Source: Myxococcota bacterium (GTDB taxonomy: Bacteria; Myxococcota_A; UBA796; CAJQPC01). From it: a DNA stretch of 64,000 nucleotides. Location: contig JAZAMN010000059.1 in NCBI GenBank assembly GCA_036229005.1, forward strand, positions 1-64,000, in the 5' to 3' direction. The position numbers were made by a program, and so were the translations under genes. Positions within the stretch are counted from its first letter, which is position 1; each line of letters opens with the position of its first letter. Positions 1-41,634 of the stretch are shown one piece after another. The notes below the pieces were generated by a model, which was not told the origin of the DNA, did not search any database, and saw only the letters and a list, made by a program, of their open reading frames with translations.

Positions 1-163
1 TGTCAGCGACGATGAACTCCCCGAACTCCACGGAGCCGGGCTCGGCGGACAGGACGCAGACGGTGGTGTCATCGACACCGCCGACGTTGTTGTCGGCCTC
101 GATGAGCTCGAAGTCGCTGCAGCCGGTCAGCATTCCGGCCAGGGAGAAGAGAAGGGTCGGCAT
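1..163 (-). CDS. Lipoprotein, N-terminal part only (runs off window start)
   Basis: Not in ORF track. Read manually: ATG at 163 preceded by GGAG; MPTLLFSLAGMLTGC-SDFELIEADNNVGG... with lipobox LTGC; open to base 1. Confidence 0.7.
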   Translation of the reverse strand, partial: MPTLLFSLAGMLTGCSDFELIEADNNVGGVDDTTVCVLSAEPGSVEFGEFIVAD

Positions 164-2790: not shown

Positions 2791-2867
2791 TGGCACCCCC
2801 AGCAGGACTCGAACCTGCGACCGTCGGCTTAGAAGGCCGATGCTCTATCCAGCTGAGCTATGGGGGC
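2791..2867 (-). tRNA. tRNA-Arg(UCU)
   Basis: GCCCCCATAGCTCAGCTGGATAGAGCATCGGCCTTCTAAGCCGACGGTCGCAGGTTCGAGTCCTGCTGGGGGTGCCA: 77 nt cloverleaf, anticodon loop CT-TCT-AA, GTTCGA T-loop, encoded CCA. Confidence 0.97.
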
Positions 2868-27109: not shown

Positions 27110-30100
27110 TCATGCCGCAAAGCGAGCCACGACCAGAACCCCTTCTGCGCGATCCTCGACCTGGATCTCCACCGGAGCGCCCCCCAGCTCCCGGTGTGCG
27201 CTGGCGACCTGGCCCCGCAGGCGCACCTGCACGCGGTCCTGCTCGATGCCACAAACCTGCACCTCGCGGGGGTTCAAGGCCATCCCGCGGCCCAGCGCCT
27301 TGAGCACAGCCTCCTTGGCGGACCAGGCGACCGTGACGGCCCGCGGGTCGTCCGCCAAAAGCGAACGCTCGTTCTCCGAGAACCACTCCTCCAGGAAGGC
27401 CGGGTGGCGCGCTTCGACCTGCTCAAGGTCCACACCGACCCGCCCCTGCTGGGTCGCGAGGGCCACCGCGTGTCCTGCGGAGTGGGAGATGGAGACCCGG
27501 GGCCCCCGCACACCGTGTACCACCACCTGGGGCTCACCGCTCTCCAGGCTCTGAATACGGATGTCCATCGGCGAGGCACCCGTCAGGTCGACCAGCGCCC
27601 GCTTCGCGGCGATGCGTCCCGCGATGCGGTCCGCCTGCCGCTTGGGGGTCCCGCGCGCCTGCAGCTCGGCCAGCTCCGCCTCGCTCAGCCAGGGGCTGGG
27701 ATCTTCGCCGACCTGGGCGCTGCGCAGGCAGGCGTCGGCCCCACCGGAGCTCGGGCGCACCACCACGGCCTCGCCGAACGCGGACTCCTCCCAGCCGTCC
27801 TCGGGCTCCTGGAAGCGGTCGCGCTCGGGCAGGGGGCCCTTCTCCACCATGCGGAAGCCGCGCACCGACATCAGACGCCCGTCCTCGCCGTCGAGATCGA
27901 CGTCGTACGCGCCGTCCGGACGGAGCTGAGCGGTGATGGTGAGGTCTTCCCCGTCCCGAACAGTCCGAGCCATCCAGACCGTCTCCACAGAAGCGGGGAG
28001 GGCCAGGCTGCCCTCGGCGACCATGGCGTGGAGTCCGGCGGCCTGGAAGGCAGCCTCCAGGGCCAGCGGAGAGGTGATGAGCCCCTGCGCGATGTAGGAG
28101 TGCTCGACCCGGGCGGTGGCGCTCAGGCCATCGCGGGTGACTGCCTCGGCCCCGCGGAGGACCTGGAAGGCCGGACCATGGAAGAAGCGGCGGTAGATCT
28201 CGCCGCGGCCGATGGGCTCCTCGGGGAAGAAGGCGGGCGGCATGGGGGCCAGCTCGGGCTTGCCCTCCAGGCGCACAGTGGCCGAAAAATGGTGGGTGCG
28301 CAGGGTCTTGCCGGCCTTGTTCACGCGCTCGGAGTAGAGCTCGCAGCGGACCCGGCCGTCGGGGGTGGGCTCGGCGCGCAGCTCCAGGTCGCAGCCCTGG
28401 CCGCGGTAGAGCTTCACGGGCTTGCTGAACTGCACGTCCTCGACGCCGACGTAGGCCAGACCGGGGCGGGCCAGGCTGGCGGCGGCGGCCATCAGCTCCA
28501 AGCCCATGACGCCGGGCAGCACGGGCACCTTGTCGATGGCGTGGTCCAGGATCCAGGGGTCCCGGTCCTGGTCCAGGCTGTAGCGGGCGACCACCACGGG
28601 GCCCTCGTGCTCGACGCTGTCCAGCAGGGGGTGGTTGGGGCTGGGGTTCAGGCCGCCCAGCTTGCCAGCGACCACGACCTCGCCCTCGACGCCAGCGGCG
28701 ATGAGGTCGACGGCCAGCGCGGCGCCTGCGTGGGCCGGGAGCAGCTCGACGCCGCGGGCCTCCAGCAGGTTCTGCATGCCACCGCGCACGGCCATGCCGA
28801 CGTCGCCCCAGGCGGTCCAGTCCACGTGCAGGGAGCGGGGGCGGCTCAGGCAGATCTGGGCCAGCGCCTCGTTCGCGGCGGAGTAGTCCACCTGCCCCTG
28901 GTTGCCGAAGCGGCCCGCGACGGAGCCCATGGACAGCAGCCAGGTGCCCTCCTCGATGGCCTCGACCAGGGTCAGTCCGCCCACGGCCTTGCCGTCGAAG
29001 ACGCGGTGGAAGGCGGCCTCGTCCTTGTCCTGGATCAGGCGGCTCTCCTCGACACCGGCGCCGTGGATCACGCCGTCGATGCGGCCGTAGTCGGCCTTCA
29101 CGGAGCCCACCAGGTCCCGCAGCGACTGCACGTCGGCCATGTCGCAGGTGCGGTACTCGGCGGTGGCGCCCAGGCCACGCAGCTCCTCCAGGGTCTGGCG
29201 GATCTCCTCGGCCTTGCGCAGCTTGTGGAGCTGGCGCTCGATCTGGGCGGGGGTGGCGCGCTCACCGGCCTCCTTGAGCTCGGCGCGGATCCGGTCCTTC
29301 TCGGCCTTCTCGTCCAGGGGCTCGGTGCCCGCGGGGGAGCGACCGACCAGCACCAGGGTCGCCGGGCTGCGGCGGGCGAACTCCACGGCCACCCGGGAGG
29401 TGACGCCGCGGCCACCACCGGTGACCAGCACGACCTGGTTGTCGTTGGGGCGCTGCAGGGCGGGCGGGTGCTCCTCGATGGCCAGCTCGATCACCGTGCG
29501 GGTGCCGTCGTAGCCGTGGAAGCACTCGACGGTGCCGTCGTGGGCGGCCAGCTCCTGGCAGAGCAGCTCGGCGATGCGCTCGGGCTCAAGCTGCGGGGAC
29601 ACGTCCACCACGCGGGCGCTGCAGTCCTCCCACTCCCGGCCCAGGGCCTTGGTGAAGCCAGCGCGCGAGCCGTCGAAGAAGGCCTGGTCGGGGGTCATCC
29701 CGTCCAGCTCCCCCATCATGGTCAGGCAGATCCAGTCGCGGACGGCGGTCTCCACGTGCTCCTGGGCCACCCGGAAGGTGGAGAACACGTCGCCGGCGAC
29801 ATCGACCACTGCATCGGGCTCACCCTCGGTGCTCGCGCCGCGCTCGGCCAGGGCCTCCACCATCGCCTCGGCGACGGGGCCGTCTCCCAGCACCCGCACC
29901 ACGCGGCCCTGCAGGGAGCCCTCCAGGTTCAGGGGGCGGGGCAGGCGCACGGGGCGCCGGATCCAGAAGGTGGGGGGCAGCTCGGACAGGGGATCGCTGG
30001 CGTCCTCCTCGACGGAGGGCTCAGCGGCTGCGGGCTCGGCGCTCACGGGGGCGGCGTCCGCGGACACGCGCTCCCCCAGCCAGCCAGCCAGCGCGCCGAT

Positions 30101-33100
30101 GGTCGCGTAGTCGGCCAGGGAGAAGGAGTCGTCGCGCTCGACGCCAAAGTGGTCGCGCACCTCGGAGAAGATCTCCGCCTGCTTGACCGTGTCGATGCCC
30201 AGGTCGGCCTCGAGCTCGTAGTCCAGGTCCAGGTCCTCGCGCTCGTAGCCGGTCTTCTCGGAGATCACGGCCAGCAGGGTCTCCAGGACCTCGGCGGAGC
30301 GGGTGACCGGGGCCGCGCCGGACTCGGCGGCGGGCTCGGGAGCGGCGGGCGCCTCGACAGCGGGCGCCTCGGCAGTGGGTGCCTCGACAGCGGGTGCCGC
30401 GACGGGGGCGGCGGGGCCCTTGGCCATCTGCTCGGCCATCCAGCCAGCCAGCGCCCGGATGGTCGCGTAGTCGGCCAGCGAGAAGGAGTCGTCGCGCTCG
30501 ACGCCGTAGTGCTCACGCACCTCGGAGAAGATCTCCGCCTGCTTGACCGTGTCGATGCCCAGGTCGGCCTCGAGCTCGTAGTCGGGGTCCAGGTCCTCGC
30601 GCTCGTACCCGGTTTTCTCGCCGATGACGTCGATCAGATGCGACAGCACCTCGTCTGCGGACACGGCGGCGGCAGCCGGCGCCTGAGCGGGTGTGGGGGC
30701 GGACGCAGGTGCAGTGGTGGGGGCGGGAGCCTCGGGGGCCACGGAAGCCGCTCCTCCCTGGGCACCCATCTGCTCGGTCAGCCAGCCGGCCAGGGCCTTG
30801 ACGGTCGGGTAGTCGGCCAGCGAGAAGCTGTCGTCGCGCGCGATGCCGTAGTGGTCCCGCACCTCGGAGAAGATCTCCGCCTGCTTGACCGTGTCGATGC
30901 CCAGGTCGGCCTCGAGCTCGTACTCGGGGTCCAGGTCCTCGCGCTCGTACCCGGTCTTCTCGCCGATGACGGCCAGCAGGTGGTCCAGCACGGCCTGGGG
31001 GTCTGCGGAGGAGGCGGCTGCGGTGCTCTGCGGGGGGGCCTCCTGCACCTCCACCACACCCTGGCCCGCGGGCTCCTCGACACTCTGCGGCGCCGGCGAG
31101 GTCCCACTGGCGCCGACCTGCTCGGTCAGCCAGCCGGCCAGGGCCTTGACGGTCGGGTAGTCGGCCAGCGAGAAGTTGTCGTCGCGCGCGATGCCGTAGT
31201 GGTCCCGCACCTCGGAGAAGATCTCCGCCTGCTTGACCGTGTCGATGCCCAGGTCGGCCTCGAGCTCGTACTCGGGGTCCAGGTCCTCGCGGCCGTAGCC
31301 GGTCTTCTCACCGATGACGGCGAGCAGGTGCTCCAGGATGGCGGTGCCGTCGACCGCCTGTGCAGCGACCGGGGCGGCTGCGGGGGCCGCTTGGGTCACG
31401 GGCTTGGGGCTGGCGCTCTGGGCGCCCTCACGGGCACGCAGGGTGCGCTCCTCGACGACCAGCTCCACGCTGTCCATGCCGGTGATCTCGCTGAGCCAGC
31501 GCTGGTTCAGGGCGGCGTCGCTGATGCGCTGGTCCCCGATGGCGGCCTGCTTCCAGAGGCCCAGGGCGAGCTGGGAGCCGAAGCCGGCGGCCAGGCGCAG
31601 GGCGTAGGTGGCCTGGTGCTTGCCGCCGGTGGACAGGTTGAGGTTGCCCAGCTCGGGGTCGGGATCCCGCAGGTTGGGGATGGCCGGGGTCTGCTGGTAC
31701 TGCAGAGCCTTGATGGCCACGGCGTCCTCGATGGAGGCGCCCATCGGGTGGCCGGTCAGGCCCTTGGTGTTGGTGACCAGCACCGAGTCCGCGCCCGCGC
31801 CGTAGGAGGCCCGGATGGCGGCGATCTCGGCGGCGGCGGAGCCACCCCGCGCGGGGGTGTAGGTCTCGTGGGACATGAACAGCGTGCGGCGGCCCATCTC
31901 CTCGGGGCTGATGCCCTCGCGGGCGGCGCCCTTGCGCACCAGCTCGCTCATGACGCCGGAGATGTGGTTCACGTCCAGGCGGGTGCCGTGGAACGCGGAG
32001 TTCACGCTGACGGAGCCCACCAGCTCGGCCACGGGGACCAGCCCGCGGGCGGCGGTGTCCTCCTGGCGCTCGATGATGAGGCCCACGGCGCCCATGCCCA
32101 GGATCATCCCGTGGCGGCGGCGGTCGAAGGGCAGCGCGGCGTTCTCCACCTTGTCCTCGGTGGTCGCGGCGCCCGCGGCCAGGAAGCCGGAGCCCAGCCA
32201 CTCGAGCAGGTCGGGGGTGGTCACGTCGTCGGCGCCCACCACGATGACGCGGCGGCAGCGGCCCAGGGTGATCCAGTCCTCGGCGATGCCGACGGCCTGG
32301 GTGGTGCTGGAGCAGGCGGAGTTGATCTGGGTGTTGGGCCCGCGGGCCCCGATGAGCTGCGCGAACTGCGAGTGGCCCATGGACAGGACCTGCAGCAGGA
32401 AGCGGCGATCGAAGTGCCCCTCGTCGTCCAGGCCGCCGCCGGTGAGCTTCTCGGCCATGCGGTTCAGGCCGGGGAAGGCCGAGGCGAAAATGATGCCGGT
32501 GTCATCGCGCATGGACTCGGGCAGGGCCCAGCCGGTGGCGACGGAGCTGCCCTTGGTGGTCTCGCGGTAGGTGCGGACCAGAGGGATGCCGGCGTCGCGC
32601 AGGGCCTCGTAGCCGGCGGCGATGGCGAGCTGGGTGGCGCGGTCGAAGGCCTTGATGATGCGCGGGCTGACGCCCCACTCCGACAGATCGAAGTGCTGGG
32701 CCTGGCCGGCCAGGCGGATGACCTGGTCCTCCCGCTCGACGGGCTCGAAGCTTCCCTGGCCGCTGGCGTCCTTGAAGACGCGCACGATGCCCTTGTCCAG
32801 GAAGGCCTCCCGGACGTGCTGGGGCACGGGGTCGATCCGGTTGTCGCCGCGGAGCACGCTGTGGACGTTGTCCTCGCTGAACACCTCGGTCCCGCCAGGG
32901 AGCCCGACAGAGGCGCCGCTGCACACGATGCGGGGGCGGTGGATCACGTCTCCCCCGAGCGCCACCTGAGCGCTCTGACCCGCAGCGATCTGTGCGGCCT
33001 GCTGGACGGGGGCGGGGGGCATGAGCCGGCGGGCGGCCTGGAAGCTGGCGTCCAGGAGCTTCTGCACCATCGGCAGCATGCTTTGGGCGAAGGCCTGCGC

Positions 33101-36100
33101 GTCGGCGCCCTGAATACCCATCTGCGCCGCCTGGACCAGGAAGTCCTGGACCATCTGTGCGCTGTCATCCACCGGCGAGGACACGCTGGCGGCGGGCTGG
33201 GTGGCGATGCTGCGCTGCTGGACGGGGGCCTTGGGCGCGGCTGCGGGCTGGCTGACGGGGCCTCGGGGCTGGGTGGCGACGGCGGGCGCGCTGCGGTCCC
33301 AGCGGGGCTCGAACTGCCCCAGGCGGCCGGCGAAGTAGTGCACCAGATCGCGCAGGCTGGGGTGGTCGGAGAGAAGGAAGCCCGCCTCGCGCTCCAGCTT
33401 GAAGTCCTGACGGAGCTGGGCGACCAGCTCGGCCTGACGCACCGTGTCGATGCCCAGGTCTGCCTCGAGCTCCAGGTCGGGCTCCAGGCCGGCGGGCTCC
33501 ACGCCAGCGCGGTCGGCGACGGCCTTGTAGACGGCCTCGATCACGTAGGGGGTGGCCTGCAGCTCGCCCGCGGGCTGGGCGGGGGTGGCCATGGCCTTGG
33601 CGATGGCCTCGCTGGTGGCGAAGCGCTCACCGGGGGGCTGCAGCAGGTCGACCACCTGGGTGCCGGGGTCCTGCTTGACGGGGAAGCCCATGGCGACCAG
33701 ACCGGCCACGGCGTCCCGGAAGGAGCGGGCGCCGCCCACCTTGGGGTGGTTGGTGTTGAGCACGCGGTGGGGGCGGCCCTTGAGGATGGTGGAGATCATC
33801 CCCGCCAGGGCGCGCTTGGGGCCGATCTCGACGAAGATGCGGGCGCCCTCGGCGTACATGCGCTCGACCTGGTTGACCCACTCCACAGGCGCGGCCACCT
33901 GCTTGGAGAGCAGGTCGATGATCTCCTCGCTGGTCTCGGGGTACCAGCGCGAGGTCACGTTGGACGTGATGGGGCGGCTGGGCGGCACGATGTTGCTGCG
34001 CTCCAGCACCCGCTTGAGGGGCTCGGATGCAGGGGCGACGATGGCCGAGTGGAAGGCGTGGGACACCGGCAGGGGGATGACGGTGATGTTCCGGCTGCGG
34101 AAGATCTCGCTGGCGGCCTCGACCGCGAGGGTCGCGCCGGCGATGACGGTCTGCTTGGGGGAGTTCTTGTTGGCGGCGATGACGTAGCCGTCGATCTCGG
34201 CCAGGACCTCGTCGACCACCTCGGAGGAGGCGGCCACGCCGGCCATCGCGCCGGGGTCATCGAGCTGGATGCAGGCCATCTCGCGGCCGCGGGCGGTGAC
34301 CGCCTGGAGCGAGCCCCAGAAGTCGGTGACGCCGGCGGCGACCAGCGCGCCGTACTCACCCAGGCTGTGCCCGGCGACCATGTCGGGGAACACGCCGTGG
34401 CCGGAGAGCACCCGCAGCAGGGCGATGTCCAGGGTCAGGGTGGCGGGCTGGGCGATCTCGGTGGCCCGCAGGGCGTTGAAGGAGGCGTCCTTGTCGTCGG
34501 GGTCGATGCCGACGATGTAGTCCATGATGGACCGGCCGATCTCGGGGGAGATGACCTGGTCGGCCTCCTCGAAGGTGGCCTTGACCAGGGGGTAGGGCTC
34601 GAAGAGATCCAGGCCCATGCCCAGGTACTGGCTGCCCTGGCCGGTGAACACGAAGGCCAGCTTGCCGTTGGCCGGGGTGTCCTCCACGTGGATGGAGCGC
34701 ATGCGCAGGATGTCCCAGCCGCGGCCCTTGTCGGCGGCCTTGCGGATCTTGGCGATCTGCTGCTTGCGCTCCTCCAGGGAGTCGGCGGCGGCGGCCACGC
34801 GCAGGGGCAGGCTGGGGTTCCAGGGGGCGTCCTCGCCGCGCTCGATGCGGTCCAGGTTGGCCAGCAGGCCGGTCAGGTCCCGGGCGGAGGTGGCCCAGAT
34901 GCCCTGGGGCAGAGGCCGCTCGATGACCTCGACGGTGGACGGGGTGCTCACGGGCGCGCGGGCCGCACTGTCCGAGGGGGTGTACTCCTCCAGCACGGCG
35001 TGGAAGTTGGTCCCTCCAAACCCGAAGGCGGAGACGCCCGCCATGCGGGACCAGCCGCGGGTCTCCCAGGGCTCGGCGTGGGTCTGGACCTGCAGGGGCA
35101 CGGCGTCCATGGGCAGGTCGGCGCGGCCCTCCTTGAAGTTGATGGAGGGGGGCAGGACCTTGTTGTGGAGCGCCAGGGCGACCTTGATCATGGACGCGGC
35201 GCCGGCGGCGGACTTGAGGTGGCCGATCTGGGACTTGACGGAGCCGATGCGGATGGGACCGCGGGCCCCGCGGCGACCGCTACCGATGACGTCGGAGAGC
35301 GCGGTGACCTCGATCTTGTCGCCGACCACGGTGGAGGTGCCGTGGCACTCCAGCAGGTCGACCTCGACGGGATCCACGGCGGCGTCGGCGTAGGCGCGAC
35401 GCAGGGCGCGGCGCTGGCCCTCGATGTTGGGGGCGGTGATGCCCTTGCCCTTGCCGTCGGAGCTGGCGCCCATGCCGCGGATCACGGCGTAGATGCGGTC
35501 CCCGTCACGCTCGGCGTCGCTCAGCCGCTTGAGCACCAGGACGCCGGCGCCCTCGCCCATGACGAAGCCGTTGGCGCCCTTGTCGAAGGGGGAGCTCCGG
35601 TCGTGGGACAGGGCCCCGATGGCGGAGAACTTGGCGTAGGTGGGCGGGTCCATGGAGCGGTCGGAGCCGCCGGTGACCGCCACGTCGAAGTCGCCATCCT
35701 GCAGGCCCTTCATGGCGGCGTGGATGGCGGCCATGGAGCTCGCGCAGGCAGCGTCCACGGTGTAGTTGGGGCCGCCCAGGTCGAAGGCGTTGGTCACGCG
35801 ACCGGCCACGACGTTGGAGAGCTCACCGGGCATGGAGTCCTCGGTGATGGGGGGCAGGGCCTCCTTGAAGCTGGCCTCGAAGGCGTCCAGGATGGCGTCC
35901 TGCTGGGCCTTGGGCATGGCCTGGACTTCCGGGGTCGCCTTGAGCTGCTCCCGCACGGTCGCGATGTGGATGCGCAGGCTGGAGGCATCGCGCGCGGCGT
36001 TGCCGCCCATGGCGTTGCCCAGGATGACGGCGATGCGGGAGCGATCGACCTTGGAGTCCTTGGTGATCCCGGCGTCCTCCAGAGCCTCGCCGACGGCCAC

Positions 36101-37474
36101 CAGGGCCATCTTCTGCACATCGTCGATGAAGCTGGCCATCTTGGGCGGGATGCGGAACTCCCGCGCCTTGAAGGGCAGGTCCCGCACCCAGCCGCCGATC
36201 TTGGAGTAGGTGCTGTCGGGGATGCCCCGCTCGGAGACCCAGAAGAGCTCGGGGTCCCAGCGGTCGGGGGTGACCTCGGTGATGCTGTTTCGGCCGGCCT
36301 GGAGGTTCTCCCAGAAGGCCTTGACGTTGGGGGCATCCGGCAGGACAGCGCCCAGGCCCACGACGGCGATCAGCTCCTGGCTAGGCGCGGGGCCCTCCCG
36401 CTCGGGGACCTCGATGTCCAGCGCGGGGGCGGCCTCGGGGGCGGCGGGGGCGACCGGCTCGGGGGGCAGAGCGTCGGCGAACTCGGCGCGGGCGGCCTCG
36501 ATGGCCTCGACGGCGGCCTCAACGGGCTGTCCGACCGCCATGGCGGCGACCAGGGGATCACCGGCGATGGGCTGGCCCTCCCAGGCGGCGAGCTGCCAGA
36601 GGACCGCGCTGCCGACGCTGCCGCCGGCGTGGGCGATGACGGCCTTCCCGTTGGCGGCGCGAAGGGCGCTGAGGCTACGACCAATCTCCCCCCCGAGCGT
36701 CCAGGGGCGGGCCTGGGCGGCGCGGCTGCGGGCCTGCTCCATGGCGAGCTGGGTGGCGCGCACGCAGTCGCTCAGGCTGTGGTAGCGGGCGACCAGCTCC
36801 CCCGCGAGGGCGAGCCCCTGACCGGCAGGCCAGGCGGCGGCGAGGTGGTCATCGGCGCTGCACCAATCCGCCCACACCGTCTCGGGGGCCTCCCCCTCCG
36901 CCAACCTGCGAACCACGGGTGACAGCGAGGACGCCGTGATGCGGACACCCTCCACCACGCGGCTGGACAGGTCACCGGCCTTGCGGGCCTGCTCCCGCAG
37001 GTGCGGCCCCACCACGCCGTCGAATCCGTAGAGCTGCTCCCGAAGCACAACACCTTGCGCACCCAGCGCGACCGCGGCGGCCGCGGTGTCCGGCCCCACG
37101 CCGGCGTCCAGGATGCACGCGCCCTCCTGCTCGGCGAGCATGGCCAGGCCCTCGCGCGCGCCGACGCGACCACCGGCCTCAGAGCCACGCAGGAACACCC
37201 CCGCGAAGCCCTCGGGCACCGCGGTGGGCTCCAGCACCTCCAGCCAGCAGGGGGTGCCCTCCACCAGCGTGTCCTCGCCGGTGAACACGAGTCCTGCGGC
37301 GTGGGGTGCGGACTGCCCGGGGTTGAGGCGGGCCCAGGCCCCCTGCGGCCAATCCCCCACCACCTCTCCCCCCTCGCTGAGGTCGAGGACGGGGGTGGCT
37401 CCGACGGCGAGGACCTTGTCGGCCAGCGCAGCAGCGGAGGGAGGCAGGATCACGAACAGGGAGGCGGAAGACAT
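27110..37474 (-). CDS. Iterative type I PKS/FAS-like megasynthase: NMO/ER-like, KS, AT, ACP, KS, 4xACP, KR, DH, PPTase (3454 aa)
   Basis: KS1 DAACASS/ECHGTST/GHLKS; AT GHSLG, HAFHS; KS2 SACSS/SHETYT/GHPMG; 5 ACPs LEADLGIDTV; KR TGGGRG...YSAAN; DH DH.....PVLPG; PPTase GVDLE, WSAKEAVLKA. Confidence 0.93.
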   Translation of the reverse strand: MSSASLFVILPPSAAALADKVLAVGATPVLDLSEGGEVVGDWPQGAWARLNPGQSAPHAAGLVFTGEDTLVEGTPCWLEVLEPTAVPEGFAGVFLRGSEAGGRVGAREGLAMLAEQEGACILDAGVGPDTAAAAVALGAQGVVLREQLYGFDGVVGPHLREQARKAGDLSSRVVEGVRITASSLSPVVRRLAEGEAPETVWADWCSADDHLAAAWPAGQGLALAGELVARYHSLSDCVRATQLAMEQARSRAAQARPWTLGGEIGRSLSALRAANGKAVIAHAGGSVGSAVLWQLAAWEGQPIAGDPLVAAMAVGQPVEAAVEAIEAARAEFADALPPEPVAPAAPEAAPALDIEVPEREGPAPSQELIAVVGLGAVLPDAPNVKAFWENLQAGRNSITEVTPDRWDPELFWVSERGIPDSTYSKIGGWVRDLPFKAREFRIPPKMASFIDDVQKMALVAVGEALEDAGITKDSKVDRSRIAVILGNAMGGNAARDASSLRIHIATVREQLKATPEVQAMPKAQQDAILDAFEASFKEALPPITEDSMPGELSNVVAGRVTNAFDLGGPNYTVDAACASSMAAIHAAMKGLQDGDFDVAVTGGSDRSMDPPTYAKFSAIGALSHDRSSPFDKGANGFVMGEGAGVLVLKRLSDAERDGDRIYAVIRGMGASSDGKGKGITAPNIEGQRRALRRAYADAAVDPVEVDLLECHGTSTVVGDKIEVTALSDVIGSGRRGARGPIRIGSVKSQIGHLKSAAGAASMIKVALALHNKVLPPSINFKEGRADLPMDAVPLQVQTHAEPWETRGWSRMAGVSAFGFGGTNFHAVLEEYTPSDSAARAPVSTPSTVEVIERPLPQGIWATSARDLTGLLANLDRIERGEDAPWNPSLPLRVAAAADSLEERKQQIAKIRKAADKGRGWDILRMRSIHVEDTPANGKLAFVFTGQGSQYLGMGLDLFEPYPLVKATFEEADQVISPEIGRSIMDYIVGIDPDDKDASFNALRATEIAQPATLTLDIALLRVLSGHGVFPDMVAGHSLGEYGALVAAGVTDFWGSLQAVTARGREMACIQLDDPGAMAGVAASSEVVDEVLAEIDGYVIAANKNSPKQTVIAGATLAVEAASEIFRSRNITVIPLPVSHAFHSAIVAPASEPLKRVLERSNIVPPSRPITSNVTSRWYPETSEEIIDLLSKQVAAPVEWVNQVERMYAEGARIFVEIGPKRALAGMISTILKGRPHRVLNTNHPKVGGARSFRDAVAGLVAMGFPVKQDPGTQVVDLLQPPGERFATSEAIAKAMATPAQPAGELQATPYVIEAVYKAVADRAGVEPAGLEPDLELEADLGIDTVRQAELVAQLRQDFKLEREAGFLLSDHPSLRDLVHYFAGRLGQFEPRWDRSAPAVATQPRGPVSQPAAAPKAPVQQRSIATQPAASVSSPVDDSAQMVQDFLVQAAQMGIQGADAQAFAQSMLPMVQKLLDASFQAARRLMPPAPVQQAAQIAAGQSAQVALGGDVIHRPRIVCSGASVGLPGGTEVFSEDNVHSVLRGDNRIDPVPQHVREAFLDKGIVRVFKDASGQGSFEPVEREDQVIRLAGQAQHFDLSEWGVSPRIIKAFDRATQLAIAAGYEALRDAGIPLVRTYRETTKGSSVATGWALPESMRDDTGIIFASAFPGLNRMAEKLTGGGLDDEGHFDRRFLLQVLSMGHSQFAQLIGARGPNTQINSACSSTTQAVGIAEDWITLGRCRRVIVVGADDVTTPDLLEWLGSGFLAAGAATTEDKVENAALPFDRRRHGMILGMGAVGLIIERQEDTAARGLVPVAELVGSVSVNSAFHGTRLDVNHISGVMSELVRKGAAREGISPEEMGRRTLFMSHETYTPARGGSAAAEIAAIRASYGAGADSVLVTNTKGLTGHPMGASIEDAVAIKALQYQQTPAIPNLRDPDPELGNLNLSTGGKHQATYALRLAAGFGSQLALGLWKQAAIGDQRISDAALNQRWLSEITGMDSVELVVEERTLRAREGAQSASPKPVTQAAPAAAPVAAQAVDGTAILEHLLAVIGEKTGYGREDLDPEYELEADLGIDTVKQAEIFSEVRDHYGIARDDNFSLADYPTVKALAGWLTEQVGASGTSPAPQSVEEPAGQGVVEVQEAPPQSTAAASSADPQAVLDHLLAVIGEKTGYEREDLDPEYELEADLGIDTVKQAEIFSEVRDHYGIARDDSFSLADYPTVKALAGWLTEQMGAQGGAASVAPEAPAPTTAPASAPTPAQAPAAAAVSADEVLSHLIDVIGEKTGYEREDLDPDYELEADLGIDTVKQAEIFSEVREHYGVERDDSFSLADYATIRALAGWMAEQMAKGPAAPVAAPAVEAPTAEAPAVEAPAAPEPAAESGAAPVTRSAEVLETLLAVISEKTGYEREDLDLDYELEADLGIDTVKQAEIFSEVRDHFGVERDDSFSLADYATIGALAGWLGERVSADAAPVSAEPAAAEPSVEEDASDPLSELPPTFWIRRPVRLPRPLNLEGSLQGRVVRVLGDGPVAEAMVEALAERGASTEGEPDAVVDVAGDVFSTFRVAQEHVETAVRDWICLTMMGELDGMTPDQAFFDGSRAGFTKALGREWEDCSARVVDVSPQLEPERIAELLCQELAAHDGTVECFHGYDGTRTVIELAIEEHPPALQRPNDNQVVLVTGGGRGVTSRVAVEFARRSPATLVLVGRSPAGTEPLDEKAEKDRIRAELKEAGERATPAQIERQLHKLRKAEEIRQTLEELRGLGATAEYRTCDMADVQSLRDLVGSVKADYGRIDGVIHGAGVEESRLIQDKDEAAFHRVFDGKAVGGLTLVEAIEEGTWLLSMGSVAGRFGNQGQVDYSAANEALAQICLSRPRSLHVDWTAWGDVGMAVRGGMQNLLEARGVELLPAHAGAALAVDLIAAGVEGEVVVAGKLGGLNPSPNHPLLDSVEHEGPVVVARYSLDQDRDPWILDHAIDKVPVLPGVMGLELMAAAASLARPGLAYVGVEDVQFSKPVKLYRGQGCDLELRAEPTPDGRVRCELYSERVNKAGKTLRTHHFSATVRLEGKPELAPMPPAFFPEEPIGRGEIYRRFFHGPAFQVLRGAEAVTRDGLSATARVEHSYIAQGLITSPLALEAAFQAAGLHAMVAEGSLALPASVETVWMARTVRDGEDLTITAQLRPDGAYDVDLDGEDGRLMSVRGFRMVEKGPLPERDRFQEPEDGWEESAFGEAVVVRPSSGGADACLRSAQVGEDPSPWLSEAELAELQARGTPKRQADRIAGRIAAKRALVDLTGASPMDIRIQSLESGEPQVVVHGVRGPRVSISHSAGHAVALATQQGRVGVDLEQVEARHPAFLEEWFSENERSLLADDPRAVTVAWSAKEAVLKALGRGMALNPREVQVCGIEQDRVQVRLRGQVASAHRELGGAPVEIQVEDRAEGVLVVARFAA
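30070..31345 (-). repeat. Four tandem near-identical ACP-coding units within the PKS
   Basis: Recurring cacctcggagaagatctccgcctgcttgaccgtgtcgatgcccaggtcggcctcgagctcgta at 342-360 bp spacing. Confidence 0.92.
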
Positions 37475-37586
37475 GCAGGACCTGGGAAGGCAGGGTGGCA
37501 GTGCGTAGGGGACTACGCGGCGCGGGGAGCGGGGATCCCCACGATAGCGTGCTCGGCGTGAAGCTCCGAGCCTTGCCTGCGCGGAC

Positions 37587-37602
37587 AGCAAGCCGCGTGC
37601 CA
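37587..37602 (-). promoter_or_regulatory. Sigma54 (-24/-12) promoter for the PKS
   Basis: TGGCACGCGGCTTGCT matches TGGCAC-N5-TTGCW, ~110 bp upstream of the ATG. Confidence 0.8.
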
Positions 37603-37638
37603 GTTCGCTGCGCGCCCTCCCGTTGTAGCCTTCGCCCC

Positions 37639-38457
37639 ATGTCCAGCTACCGCGACGACTTCTACCGCCAGCCCGAACTCTACGACCTGGAGTACGCGGC
37701 GCTGGACGAGGACCTCTCCTTCTACGCCGCCCTCGCCCGCTCAGCGGGGCGCGTGCTGGAGCTGGGAGCCGGCACCGGACGGGTCACCGAGGCCATGCTG
37801 AGCGCCGGCGCGTTCGTCCACGCCGTGGATCTCTCCCCGCAGATGCTGGAGCGCCTGGGACAGCGCGTGCTCAGCCTGGGCGCCAGCGACCGCGTGGAGC
37901 GCATCCAGAGCAGCTTCCTGGAGCTCCCCGAGCTGGACCTGGTCCCCCTGGTGGTGCTCCCCTTCAACACCATCCACCACGTCTACTCCTGGCGCGATGT
38001 GCTGCGGCTCTTCGACCAGGTCAAGGCCCGCCTGCTCCCGGGCGGCCGCTTCGCGCTGGACATGCTGGTCCCCAACCCCGCGTTCTTCGAGCGCGACCGC
38101 GACGGGGTCCACGAGCTGCGGCACTTCCCCGACCCTGCGGGCGGCCGCCTCAAGACCTGGGAGAACGGCTGGTACGACCCGATCACCCAGATCAACCACG
38201 TCCGCTACCACTACGAGCGCGCCGACGGGCGCCGGCAGGTGGTCCAGGTGCCGATGCGCATGTGGTACCCGGCGGAGATCCTGGGGCTCGTGGAGCAGGC
38301 CGGGTGGAAGATGCTCCGTTGTGACGGCGACTTTCGGGGCAAACCGCTCGGGCCGGGAGACCACAAGATCGTCCTCGTCCTCAAGGCCCCCGACGAGGAC
38401 ACTGGTTCGCCGGCTGGTTCGCCGGCGGGCTCGCCGAAGGGTCCGTCGGCCGGCTGA
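37639..38457 (+). CDS. Class I SAM-dependent methyltransferase
   Basis: YDLEY...D..FY, VLELGAGTGRV, VDLSPQML. Confidence 0.9.
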   Translation: MSSYRDDFYRQPELYDLEYAALDEDLSFYAALARSAGRVLELGAGTGRVTEAMLSAGAFVHAVDLSPQMLERLGQRVLSLGASDRVERIQSSFLELPELDLVPLVVLPFNTIHHVYSWRDVLRLFDQVKARLLPGGRFALDMLVPNPAFFERDRDGVHELRHFPDPAGGRLKTWENGWYDPITQINHVRYHYERADGRRQVVQVPMRMWYPAEILGLVEQAGWKMLRCDGDFRGKPLGPGDHKIVLVLKAPDEDTGSPAGSPAGSPKGPSAG

Positions 38458-38483
38458 CTCCGGCGCGGGGCTTTGCCACAGGC

Positions 38484-38511
38484 AAAAAAAAACCACCCCG
38501 AAGGGTGGTTT
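38484..38511 (-). terminator. Rho-independent terminator of the candidate sRNA
   Basis: AAACCACCC-TTCG-GGGTGGTTT followed by a T-run. Confidence 0.9.
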
Positions 38512-38653
38512 AGGCCCTCAATGGGGCAATCCAGTTTCCTGGAAAAGAAAAGGCCGGGCCTCCTCGATACCGAATGTGGGGGGGGGGGACGCACTCGGTA
38601 TGACGTGGAGGAGGTCCCGGCCAGAACCTCGCGAGGTCTCCCTCGCTTTTCTT
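38484..38653 (-). ncRNA. Candidate structured small RNA (~170 nt), family unassigned
   Basis: Own promoter and terminator, no ATG, two GNRA hairpins, long hairpin with C11 loop. Confidence 0.75.
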
Positions 38654-38659
38654 GAATAC

Positions 38660-38688
38660 AGTATAGGGAGGTGATCGCCGCCCGTCAA
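38660..38688 (-). promoter_or_regulatory. Sigma70-type promoter
   Basis: TTGACG (38688-38683), 17-nt spacer, TATACT (38665-38660). Confidence 0.85.
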
Positions 38689-38691
38689 GAG

Positions 38692-38727
38692 AAAAAAGGC
38701 AAGTCAGATGAAAGCGCCTGACTTGCC
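38692..38727 (-). terminator. Rho-independent terminator of the 38737..41634 gene
   Basis: GGCAAGTCAG-N10-CTGACTTGCC-TTTTTT just after the stop codon. Confidence 0.88.
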
Positions 38728-38736
38728 CCCTCTCAA

Positions 38737-41634
38737 CTACTCGGCGCTGGCGCTCTGACCGCAGACCACGGTGTCGTTCCGCTCGACCAGCTCGTCCTCC
38801 AGGATGCCGTAGCTCCAGCGATCCTCGCGGAGCTTCTCGACGTCGAAGGTGCCCTGGACCAGCATCACGGAGGCGTTGTCCGAGGCGGTCAGGAGGATCT
38901 GGAAGTCACCGCTGACCGAGCCGCCGGGCTCGACGGTGGAGCCGTCGGCGATGCGGACGTAGTTGGGGCTACGCTCCAGCCAGCCGTCGATCCCAGTGGT
39001 GAGGGAATCCAGGCGACGCCAGGTGTTGTCCTCGGTGCGGTAGTTGAACCCGTCGTAGAGATCGGGGTCCACCATGGCCCAGGTGTAGGCCTGCTCGGAC
39101 CACCAGGCGGCCTGCTCCTGCGCCTCGATGGCGAAGTCCGCGTAGAAGGCCTCGGTCTGGCTGAAGGCGGTGATGCCGTCGAACTCGGAGAGCATGTAGT
39201 TGTAGGTGGCGGGGGTGACGATGAAGTCGTCCGCCGCGTAGCGGGCCGCCGCGAAGCCGCTCAGCCAGTCCTGAGGCAGGGTCCAGAAGTCCTCCTCGTC
39301 GGCGGGGTTGAGCTGGTAGCTGCCGGCGTTCAGGTAGTAGATGCTGTACCCGTCCTCGTCGGCGGAGTACTCAGCGGTCCAGTCCTTGTTCTCGGAGTTG
39401 ATCAGGACAGGCTCCCCGCTGGGGTGGGCCCCCTCGAGGTTGTCCATCGCGTACTCGCAGTCGGCGTCCGCTGCATCCACGAGCCCGTCGCCGTCGTTGT
39501 CGACGCCGTCGGTGCACTCCGTGGCGGTGAAGCGGCCATCCTCCAGGCCGTCGTCGAAGAGGCCGCAGTCCGCGTCCGCCTCGTCGGTGTAGCCGTCGCC
39601 GTCGTTGTCCTCGCCGTCGGCGCACTGGTTGTCACGCTCGAGCGCGACGTCGGCGTTGGTGCAGTTGGCGTCATCCCCATCGACGTCGCCATCACCATCG
39701 TTGTCGATGCCGTCGTTGCACTGGCCGGTCGTGAAGCCGTACTCCTGCCCCAGGTCCAGGCAGTCGGGGTCCTGGGCGTCCACCCAGCCATCGCCGTCGT
39801 TGTCGAGCAGATCCTCGCAGGTGCTGCTGGCGCGCTCATCCACGTCGGCGGAGCTGAGGCAGTCCACGTCGGCCATGTCGATGTCGCCGTCGCCGTCGTT
39901 GTCCAGGCCGTCGGCGCAGTCGGTCAGGTCGCCCAGCGCCTCGAAGCTGCCGGTGTCACAGCCGCTGTCCTCGAAGTCCACCCAGCCGTCGCCGTCGTTG
40001 TCCAGGCCGTCCTCGCAGTCGCTGAGGACATCCAGGTCTTCTTCGGTGGAGCGCACTGCGTCCACGCAGCCGGGATCGTCGGCGTCGACCAGGCCGTCGC
40101 TGTCGTTGTCGCGGCCGTCGTTGCAGACGGTCTTGCCCAGGGTGATCTCGCGCTTGCCGCCGTCGAAGCAGTCGGGGTCCTCGGCGTCGAACCAGCCGTC
40201 GCCGTCCTCGTCCTCGGGCGTGGCGCCCTCTGCCGTGGTGCAGCTTCCGGTGGTGACGGAGGAGTCGGCCTCGACCTGCCAGGCGGTCTTGCAGACAGAG
40301 TCGTCCGCGTCGATGTCGCCCTCGCCCTCCTCGGGGGGGTTGTTGTCGATGCCGTCGTTGCAGCTACTCAGGCCAAAGAAGCTGTTGTCCTCGACGCCGC
40401 CGTAGAAGCAGTCGGGGTCGGCGTTGTCGGTCCAGCCGTCGGCGTCGTTGTCCGCGCCGTCGCTGCAGCTCCCGTCGCCGTCGTCCTCGGAGTCGTAGCT
40501 GGAGTCGGTGCAGCCCGCGTCTTCGGCGTCGATGAAGCCGTCGCCGTCGTTGTCGACGTCGTCGTTGCAGGCAGCGACGCTGTAGCCGACCTCGTCGCCG
40601 TAGGTGCCGCAGTCGGCGTCGTCGTAGTCGATCCAGCCGTCGCCGTCGTTGTCGAAGTCGTCGGTGCAGGCGGACTTGCCGCTGGGCGAGAGGACCTCGT
40701 CGTTGTCCCAGGCGCTGCGGCAGTCCTCGTCCTCGGAGTCGATCAGGCCGTCGGCGTCGTTGTCCACGCCGTCGTTGCAGGCCGCGACCGCGAAGCTCCC
40801 GTCCTCGCTGTTGCCGTAGCGGCAGTCGGGGTCGTTGCGATCGCTGTAGCCGTCGCCGTCGTTGTCCTCTCCATCGGAGCAGGAGACGTCGTCGGACTCG
40901 TTGTCGTCAAAGCCGCTGGTGCAGTCGGGGTCGTCCGCGTCGACCACGCCGTCGCCGTCGTTGTCCAGGCCATCGTTGCAGTCGCAGATGCCGTCGCAGT
41001 CCAGCAGCTCGATGGGGGCGGAGGAGGAGTAGCCCTCCTCGAAGGCGCCGAAGAGGCAGTCCGGGTCGTCCATGTCGGCCCAGCCGTCGTTGTCGTCGTC
41101 GACGGGCTCTTCGCCGTCCAGGGTGTAGCAGGTGTACCCGGACTGGATGCACTCCTGGGGCTGGAAGACCGGGTCGATCACGAAGGCGATCCGGAAGTCC
41201 TCGCCGCCATCCAGGCGGTTGTGGAGCGTGAGCTGGAAGTCACCCTCGGAGGTGATCACAGCTTCGCTGCGCCACGGGTCCAGCTTGTCCTCCTTGAGGT
41301 AGAAGGCGTCGTCCAGCAGGAAGCCCCAGGGGCCCTGGTAGGACGAGGACTGAACGTGCGAGAACTCGCTGGGCCAGTCCCAGTTGGGGAGGCTGCCGCC
41401 GTCGAGCTCAACACCGCAGGCGCTCTCTTCGAGGACGTCCTCCTCGGAGTTGAAGCAGTCGATCGTGGTCGTGGAGCCCGGGCCCAGGCGCACAGCCTCT
41501 TCGGCCACGCTGGCGGAGGAGTTCGCGGCCAGCCACACGTGGTAGCTGCCCTCGACCTCGGCGTCGTGGGGGGTACAAGCGGTGGCGGCCAGCGCAATGA
41601 GCAGACCGGGAGCCAGGCGGGAGACAGATCGCAT
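38737..41634 (-). CDS. Large acidic lipoprotein with many C.DG.DNDGDG..D..D.DC repeats (putative Ca-binding)
   Basis: Lipobox-like ATAC; tandem Asp/Cys repeats through the central region. Confidence 0.85.
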   Translation of the reverse strand: MRSVSRLAPGLLIALAATACTPHDAEVEGSYHVWLAANSSASVAEEAVRLGPGSTTTIDCFNSEEDVLEESACGVELDGGSLPNWDWPSEFSHVQSSSYQGPWGFLLDDAFYLKEDKLDPWRSEAVITSEGDFQLTLHNRLDGGEDFRIAFVIDPVFQPQECIQSGYTCYTLDGEEPVDDDNDGWADMDDPDCLFGAFEEGYSSSAPIELLDCDGICDCNDGLDNDGDGVVDADDPDCTSGFDDNESDDVSCSDGEDNDGDGYSDRNDPDCRYGNSEDGSFAVAACNDGVDNDADGLIDSEDEDCRSAWDNDEVLSPSGKSACTDDFDNDGDGWIDYDDADCGTYGDEVGYSVAACNDDVDNDGDGFIDAEDAGCTDSSYDSEDDGDGSCSDGADNDADGWTDNADPDCFYGGVEDNSFFGLSSCNDGIDNNPPEEGEGDIDADDSVCKTAWQVEADSSVTTGSCTTAEGATPEDEDGDGWFDAEDPDCFDGGKREITLGKTVCNDGRDNDSDGLVDADDPGCVDAVRSTEEDLDVLSDCEDGLDNDGDGWVDFEDSGCDTGSFEALGDLTDCADGLDNDGDGDIDMADVDCLSSADVDERASSTCEDLLDNDGDGWVDAQDPDCLDLGQEYGFTTGQCNDGIDNDGDGDVDGDDANCTNADVALERDNQCADGEDNDGDGYTDEADADCGLFDDGLEDGRFTATECTDGVDNDGDGLVDAADADCEYAMDNLEGAHPSGEPVLINSENKDWTAEYSADEDGYSIYYLNAGSYQLNPADEEDFWTLPQDWLSGFAAARYAADDFIVTPATYNYMLSEFDGITAFSQTEAFYADFAIEAQEQAAWWSEQAYTWAMVDPDLYDGFNYRTEDNTWRRLDSLTTGIDGWLERSPNYVRIADGSTVEPGGSVSGDFQILLTASDNASVMLVQGTFDVEKLREDRWSYGILEDELVERNDTVVCGQSASAE

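Follow-up and report, generated by a model that had tools for sequence, protein, structure and literature searches.

A new family of structured RNA with a poly-C loop, encoded behind a lipoprotein gene in uncultured Myxococcota

Introduction

To our knowledge, RNA regulation in Myxococcota is largely unexplored apart from the small RNA Pxr. The DNA studied here comprises 64,000 nucleotides of a Myxococcota bacterium (assembly GCA_036229005.1, contig JAZAMN010000059.1, positions 1 to 64,000) and is called the window in the following. Between a lipoprotein gene and a convergent methyltransferase gene, a first-pass annotation made from the letters alone had marked a region of 244 nt (38484-38727) as an unannotated, stand-alone structured small RNA with a poly-C loop. 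Does this region encode a real RNA, does this RNA belong to a known family, and what could a loop of eleven cytosines do in the cell?

Results

Layout of the locus

By direct reading, all features listed in the first-pass annotation were found on the minus strand, correct to the base. The region and its neighbours are organized as follows (window position, strand, feature):

38737..41634, minus: lipoprotein gene, open reading frame of 965 aa, stop codon at 38737-38739
38692..38727, minus: intrinsic terminator of the lipoprotein gene, 10-bp stem GGCAAGTCAG/CTGACTTGCC, 10-nt loop, T6; read directly
38660..38688, minus: sigma-70-like promoter TTGACG-17-TATACT (TTGACG 38688-38683, TATACT 38665-38660)
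~38653, minus: predicted transcription start, deduced from the promoter
38631..38646, minus: 5' hairpin GCGAGG-GAGA-CCUCGC; direct reading and fold
38552..38622, minus: core hairpin of 71 nt; RNAalifold and alignments
38578..38588, minus: 11-C run of the apical loop, between GCGU and ACA; direct reading
38541..38551, minus: U-rich tract UUUUCUUUUCC adjoining the 3' side of the core hairpin; direct reading
38531..38542, minus: CCAG-GAAA-CUGG hairpin; direct reading and fold
38484..38511, minus: terminator with 9-bp stem, UUCG loop and U9 (stem-loop 38511-38490, U9 to 38484); terminator scan
37495-38457, plus: convergent methyltransferase open reading frame; Pfam hits

The terminator of the lipoprotein gene begins 10 nt past the stop codon; it is omitted by the terminator scan because its loop exceeds 8 nt, and was read directly instead. 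At the other end, the UUCG terminator, 27 nt beyond the stop of the methyltransferase gene, would be the predicted 3' end of an RNA of ~170 nt, and the U-rich tract behind the core hairpin is a possible early 3' end, where termination would yield a species of ~110 nt. In the core hairpin itself, a 14-bp basal stem containing a bulged A is joined through an internal loop to an apical stem of 9-10 bp, which ends in the C-loop. The 172-nt RNA folds with a minimum free energy of -84.1 kcal/mol (z = -5.84), and none of 200 shuffled sequences folds equally well; for the opposite strand of the same region z is -4.34. Pairing of the 5' end, AAGAAAAG, with CUUUUCUU is possible in the window but is missing from the minimum-free-energy fold, and an equivalent pairing of 5-8 bp was seen by eye in three relatives of the same genus.

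Runs of at least 11 C or G that lie internal to contigs are very rare in this genome of 70% G+C, most such runs being located at contig ends. There, C/G homopolymers of up to 33 nt are present (contigs C44 15934-15966, C45 29-51 and C64 1-20, at or near the ends), which are probably assembly or sequencing artefacts, unrelated to the RNA. Beside the methyltransferase gene ends an open reading frame of 3493 aa (window 27110-37591, minus strand). Its translation shows a ketosynthase, an acyltransferase and five carrier-protein repeats in tandem, resembling a synthase for polyketides or polyunsaturated fatty acids.

Structure, covariation and strand

The long hairpin is a real, strand-specific structured RNA, far beyond chance, and it is conserved and covaries in relatives. 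When RNAalifold was applied to a MAFFT alignment of 35 distinct cores, 23 pairs were obtained, 10 of them with compensatory changes, and 97.5% of the cells can pair. The covariation score is 0.222 vs 0.113 in shuffled alignments, with 0 of 500 shuffles reaching 0.222, and sliding the partners against each other as a control left only 35-49% paired. Among 60 sequences from the whole class 96.4% of the cells are paired and 21 of the 23 pairs show compensatory changes, in an alignment that is model-fitted and hence leans towards the structure. With the covariance model, the strand with the C-loop reaches 85-99 bits, compared with 21-25 bits for the opposite strand. In addition, G-U pairs are frequent; one pair, for example, is G-U in 24 and G-C in 11 of the 35 sequences. 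Model scores and G-U pairs thus settle the strand, which is the minus strand in the window, and together with the covariation they bear out the initial description of a structured non-coding RNA on this strand.

Conservation is distributed unevenly over the hairpin. Inside the window's order the basal stem GGCCGGG-A-CCUCCU/AGGAGG-CCCGGCC is near-invariant, and 6 of its 14 pairs never vary in the 35 sequences. In other orders of the class the same basal helix is built from wholly different letters; their copies have retained the apical stem together with the flanks of the loop and its 9-11 C. Since the basal stem is rewritten and the apical stem-loop is kept across orders, the loop is the sequence-specific element and the stem the part that presents it. 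The conserved C-run and flanks fit the functional loop that had been suggested from the single sequence. The length of the C-run ranges from 5 to 13 with a mode of 11 (53 unique members). Such lengths break any reading frame, so the RNA is not coding; moreover, the overlapping open reading frames begin in the -35 box or cross terminators, and a coding reading of the region was rejected.

The elements around the core are less constant. A 5' hairpin was seen by eye at the same place in most relatives, with variable sequence, and the tract after the core hairpin is U-rich in many relatives, though not in all. For the GAGA hairpin, the GAAA hairpin and the UUCG terminator no sequence conservation extends beyond the genus; the CCAG-GAAA-CUGG hairpin is not conserved outside the window's genome.

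Distribution in the class

BLAST of the 244 nt against 61 related genomes matched 29 of them, usually once per genome. The matches span only the core hairpin (window 38633-38541) with 74-95% identity. In a flanked alignment of the relatives a conserved TTGAC box is followed by a variable 5' hairpin, the conserved hairpin and a mostly U-rich tail. From the MAFFT alignment of 35 cores the covariance model R1 was built and used for genome searches. With R1, the RNA was detected in 69 of 151 genomes of the window's order and in 77 of 151 genomes of its class, covering 9 of 12 families, with one copy and rarely two or three per genome. In the homologue search and the covariation analysis, both of which had been proposed as checks at the outset, the RNA thus held. 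Matches of R1 per family in the class sample (genomes with the RNA/genomes searched):

f1: 15/19
f2: 8/9
f4: 2/2
f5: 12/20
f6: 4/9
f7: 15/26
f8: 10/15
f10: 2/2
f11: 8/8
f3, f9 and f47 (no match): 0/37, 0/2 and 0/1

In a sample spanning the phylum, 15 of 151 genomes were matched, every one of them in the window's own class. R1 did not find the RNA in 123 genomes of other classes of the phylum; all these genome sets are samples with many incomplete genomes, and not found does not equal absent.

A genome-wide motif scan gave 122 matches, of which 29 follow the strict pattern of the 5' arm and about 40 were accepted by eye as true members. Chance matches in G+C-rich genomes of many phyla make up about two thirds of the 122, and the wide spread of organism names among them is not real. 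Metagenome-assembled genomes are the source of the true members; their titles read Myxococcota, Deltaproteobacteria or similar, and a few carry obviously wrong labels. The same kind of scan in metagenomes yielded 17 places, all on ordinary DNA contigs of at least 1.3 kb, which say nothing on transcripts.

Some genomes carry additional copies. In genome G039 (contig 171) two copies of the RNA (loci L017 and L030) stand in tandem, ~160 nt apart, the second with a degenerate 5' arm and a run of N nearby. Shorter sibling variants of ~70 nt occur in some genomes of family f2, with at most three per genome (L097, L124 and L150; L211-L214); they have no inner stem, and the basal stem and a C8-11 loop are kept. 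L097, L124 and L150, all from one genome, are embedded in a longer helix with a TGnTAnnnT-like element in front.

A conserved promoter motif

The first-pass annotation had also proposed a promoter for the RNA. TTGACG-17-TATACT is the sole promoter-like site in 37500-39500 (shuffle mean 0.0). The 130 nt upstream contain a TTGAC box in 29 of 41 distinct members vs 6.1% of random genome windows, and the full pattern TTGACN-16..18-TANNNT precedes the core in 21 of the 41 unique members vs 0.035% of random 130-nt windows, which substantiates the proposal. No TTGAC is present upstream in 12 of the 41, and the full -35/-10 pattern was found in 6 of 8 further metagenome members. A sigma-54 promoter was considered as well and rejected: the sole upstream GG-N10-GC lies, as judged by eye, inside the stem of the upstream terminator and is not conserved.

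Family f7 deviates from this picture, the full promoter pattern being present in a single locus out of 15. The TTGACG box is located inside the last codons of the lipoprotein gene in three f7 loci, and AT-rich TAnnnT-like elements were noticed by eye before the hairpin in the loci of this family. In loci L193, L200 and L201 of this family the lipoprotein carries a short C-terminal extension in which Leu-Thr codons spell the TTGACG box, so that the protein tail overlaps the promoter element.

Linkage to the lipoprotein gene

The upstream gene encodes a lipoprotein of 965 aa with 13 acidic double-disulfide repeats (NCBIfam NF033662, E = 1.1e-76), for which no Pfam family was found. In its orthologues a C-terminal domain of ~250 aa is conserved and the number of acidic repeats is variable. 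This domain is present in 140 of 151 genomes of the order, mostly once. A protein-atlas search with the lipoprotein gave weak matches of 0.81 only, and the AlphaFold model of the C-terminal domain is poor (mean pLDDT 61.5).

Of 35 loci examined, the pattern search located the core in 29, and in all 29 the RNA lies directly downstream of the lipoprotein-gene orthologue on the same strand. All 15 loci compared in family f7 have gene and RNA side by side, and in the five f7 loci whose frame was correctly assigned the hairpin starts 3-26 nt past the stop codon, with a separate terminator behind it. Because of this short distance and the single full promoter, the f7 RNA may be just a 3' UTR element. 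Family f3 keeps the lipoprotein gene in 41 of 46 genomes, and five f3 loci have a plain terminator alone after it. In f11, which belongs to another order, the upstream gene was recognized by eye as that of a shorter lipoprotein with a similar C-terminal motif. Two genomes of one f7 genus have the RNA on another contig than the listed protein match, and RNA copies away from the best match to the lipoprotein gene occur in genomes G046 (contig 16), G112 and G119.

The window copy is insulated from the lipoprotein gene by the upstream terminator. Among 37 relatives with a -35 box, 8 have a T-run before it and 29 have none between gene and RNA; in most species, therefore, read-through from the lipoprotein gene would also carry the hairpin. 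Thus, the same RNA would in most relatives also be the 3' untranslated end of the lipoprotein mRNA. A tie to envelope functions may exist. The initial label 'stand-alone' finds no support: in the window's order the RNA accompanies the 3' end of the lipoprotein gene, and most relatives have no separating terminator. Judged by its position behind the gene and by the promoter motif, which 21 of 41 members share, the locus is arranged like that of a 3'-end-linked small RNA with its own predicted promoter. The linkage to the lipoprotein gene in the window's order and the conserved sigma-70-like promoter motif are new here.

Known RNA families

The window was scanned with Rfam 15. At the gathering thresholds the only match in the whole window is a distant tRNA gene (2794-2867, minus strand, 70.9 bits), in line with the earlier impression of an unannotated RNA outside the known families. 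With E up to 10, the 501 nt around the locus (38350-38850) gave chance terminator-like matches, none of them on the core hairpin. The Pxr model (RF01812) did not match this stretch at E up to 10 either; its best score in the whole genome is 21.7 bits against a cut-off of 80, at another locus formed by the end of a coding sequence and a terminator. Likewise, no match to the 6C model (RF01066) or to 6S RNA (RF00013) was obtained at the locus or in the genome; the same search found 6S in only 5 of 14 control genomes. 6S RNA forms a single long and irregular hairpin that is opened by a central bubble and closed by its 5' and 3' ends; the architecture here differs from it. The SRP RNA of the genome (RF00169) is located elsewhere, on contig 18, with 59.7 bits. 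A search of open-access full texts for C-rich or poly-C loops together with Myxococcota returned no description of the present RNA.

Comparison with Pxr, which the first-pass annotation had recommended, is fruitful for the design, with its C-rich loop and its place behind a protein gene, and fails for family membership. According to passages of PMC5684412, the SL1 loop of Pxr is essential, one C-to-A change in the loop abolishes function, and M. xanthus lacks hfq. The Northern probe for Pxr printed in PMC5568312 has runs of G, so the Pxr segment that it detects has runs of C. The parts of PMC5568312 and PMC5684412 that describe the locus give a sigma-54 promoter for Pxr and place it directly downstream of the NtrC-like regulator gene pxrR/nla19, and a passage in PMC11928866 states that Pxr targets are still unknown. 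Like Pxr, which occurs in Myxococcus and other Cystobacterineae, the present RNA belongs to the same phylum, comes from organisms apparently lacking Hfq and lies directly behind a conserved protein gene. It further shares a C-rich loop, which the sections cited above describe as functional in Pxr, and paralogous copies in some genomes. It differs in having a sigma-70-like instead of a sigma-54 promoter, an acidic-repeat lipoprotein gene instead of the NtrC-like pxrR as neighbour and one core hairpin instead of three stem-loops, and was found only in another class.

Related designs are known from other phyla. As stated in a section of PMC6486639, 6C binds mRNAs via its C-rich loops without chaperones, and B11 regulates the synthesis of cell-envelope glycolipids according to a passage of PMC12395582. 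The present RNA resembles 6C/B11 of Actinobacteria in its high-G+C, Hfq-less hosts and its C-run loop; the 6C loops, with at least 6 C, are described in PMC6486639 as pairing with G-rich mRNA sites. Unlike 6C, with two C-loops, it has a single one, the run of which is a pure homopolymer of up to 13 C, it belongs to a different phylum, and here the linkage to the lipoprotein gene is fixed. The C motifs of sX13 and GsrN are short, with 4-5 C. In sX13 of Xanthomonas and GsrN of Caulobacter, C-rich hairpin loops are the regulatory element, as parts of PMC3771888 and PMC5869019 report. In contrast to the similar use of the loop, both are unrelated to the present RNA in sequence, without any Rfam match.

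With regard to gene arrangement, DapZ and MicL of enterobacteria are 3'-end-derived small RNAs with their own promoter that depend on Hfq. The present RNA likewise sits at a protein gene's 3' end in the same orientation as the gene, its promoter motif stands just after the last codons of this gene, or inside them in f7, and in most relatives its 3' end is likely common with the mRNA. Unlike for DapZ and MicL, no hfq was found here, and the seed design differs.

Chaperones and possible targets

In the genome of the window, which is 94% complete, no gene for Hfq, ProQ or CsrA was found; as a control, the same search detected the CsrA family in E. coli, B. subtilis and Thermotoga maritima. Ranking runs of at least 7 G near possible start codons by duplex energy did not discriminate targets in this genome, since such runs are too common at 70% G+C (~1060 runs of 7 G or C, ~180 of 8). 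Also scanning for extended complements of the loop flanks and for all runs of at least 8 singled out no targets in the genome. No G-run is present in the 5' region of the linked lipoprotein gene. The first-pass annotation had proposed G-rich Shine-Dalgarno regions as targets of the loop; on a GGAGG ribosome-binding site, however, the A would be a mismatch for a pure C-run.

In another order, two species of one genus have at least six GGGGG(G) runs ~20 nt apart, directly after the RNA gene and on the same strand (L183 1640-1800 and L185 1330-1480). These runs are in principle complementary to the C-loop. Further on the stretch shows tandem repeats, and both a coding region (proline-rich, on the other strand) and an RNA partner are possible.

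Discussion

What could this RNA do? Our preferred reading, to which we give a probability of roughly 0.5, is that an RNA of ~110-170 nt with its own promoter behind the lipoprotein gene serves as a likely chaperone-independent riboregulator, the C-run of which pairs with G-rich RNAs. The RNA would be transcribed from the sigma-70-like promoter, with 5' and 3' ends as predicted above. By analogy with Pxr and 6C, the stem would then present the exposed C-loop as a pairing seed, and the C-run may pair with G-rich stretches of other RNAs without the help of a chaperone.

Three other explanations have to be weighed against this. The loop of GCGU, C-run and ACA on its rigid stem might be bound by an oligo-C-preferring protein, or titrate it, acting as a decoy or cofactor and not by pairing; candidates would be KH-domain or cold-shock-domain proteins, or Rho with its primary RNA-binding site. 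The loop flanks, which are kept across orders along with the C-run, would be in accordance with such a partner, as would the near-invariance of the basal stem and its bulged A inside the order, beyond structural need, and the failure of the target scans to single out a pairing partner. We nevertheless consider protein binding a possible but doubtful explanation: other orders tolerate quite different sequences in the basal stem, the variation of the C-run from 5 to 13 is easily tolerated by pairing, and the sole linked protein gene encodes an exported lipoprotein. A far smaller chance has to be given to the CsrA/RsmA sponge that the first-pass annotation had offered as a second option, in which GGA motifs in loops sequester CsrA. 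The window copy does have five GGA motifs, two of them at hairpin tips, but these two hairpins are lineage-specific and not conserved even inside the family, the GGA-containing sequences that do show conservation are hidden in the basal stem, and the 94%-complete genome gave no csrA, which makes this option highly improbable.

More has to be said on a cis-acting role, in which the hairpin would be a 3' UTR element of the lipoprotein mRNA, stabilizing or terminating it or giving a localization or regulatory signal, with no role in trans. The invariable position directly downstream on the same strand (29/29 loci and 15/15 in f7), the short distance to the stop codon in the five f7 loci, the lack of a terminator between gene and RNA in most relatives and the U-rich tract after the hairpin in many members are what such an element would look like. 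Against it stands the -35/-10 motif between gene and hairpin, which is enriched far above background, and in the window the gene has its own terminator in front of this motif. Furthermore, the gene does not need the element, as f3 keeps the gene with a plain terminator in five loci; extra copies occur away from the best gene match (G046, G112 and G119), and conservation of the loop sequence across orders would not be expected of a plain terminator. A purely cis-acting element therefore seems unlikely to us, and pairing by the C-run remains the preferred reading.

Taken together, the RNA is a new family, real and well-defined, marked by its unusual homopolymer loop and its conserved linkage to a gene, for which a function may be proposed by analogy. 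The lineages that carry it are uncultured Myxococcota. With its covariation, clear strand, promoter motif and defined taxonomic range the family is ready for curation, e.g., in Rfam. It is unusual for a homopolymer loop of ~11 C to persist in more than 60 genomes in spite of slippage, and this points to a simple recognition rule. More speculatively, and with little confidence on our side, C-run loops might be a general seed design in Hfq-less, G+C-rich Myxococcota, and the present family a second, class-wide branch beside Pxr that controls envelope or exported proteins by pairing with G-tracts or titrates an oligo-C binder such as Rho; the latter, if true, would amount to a new kind of global control. 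Independent of this, the fixed position behind a near-universal lipoprotein gene is a concrete lead to both the gene and the RNA.
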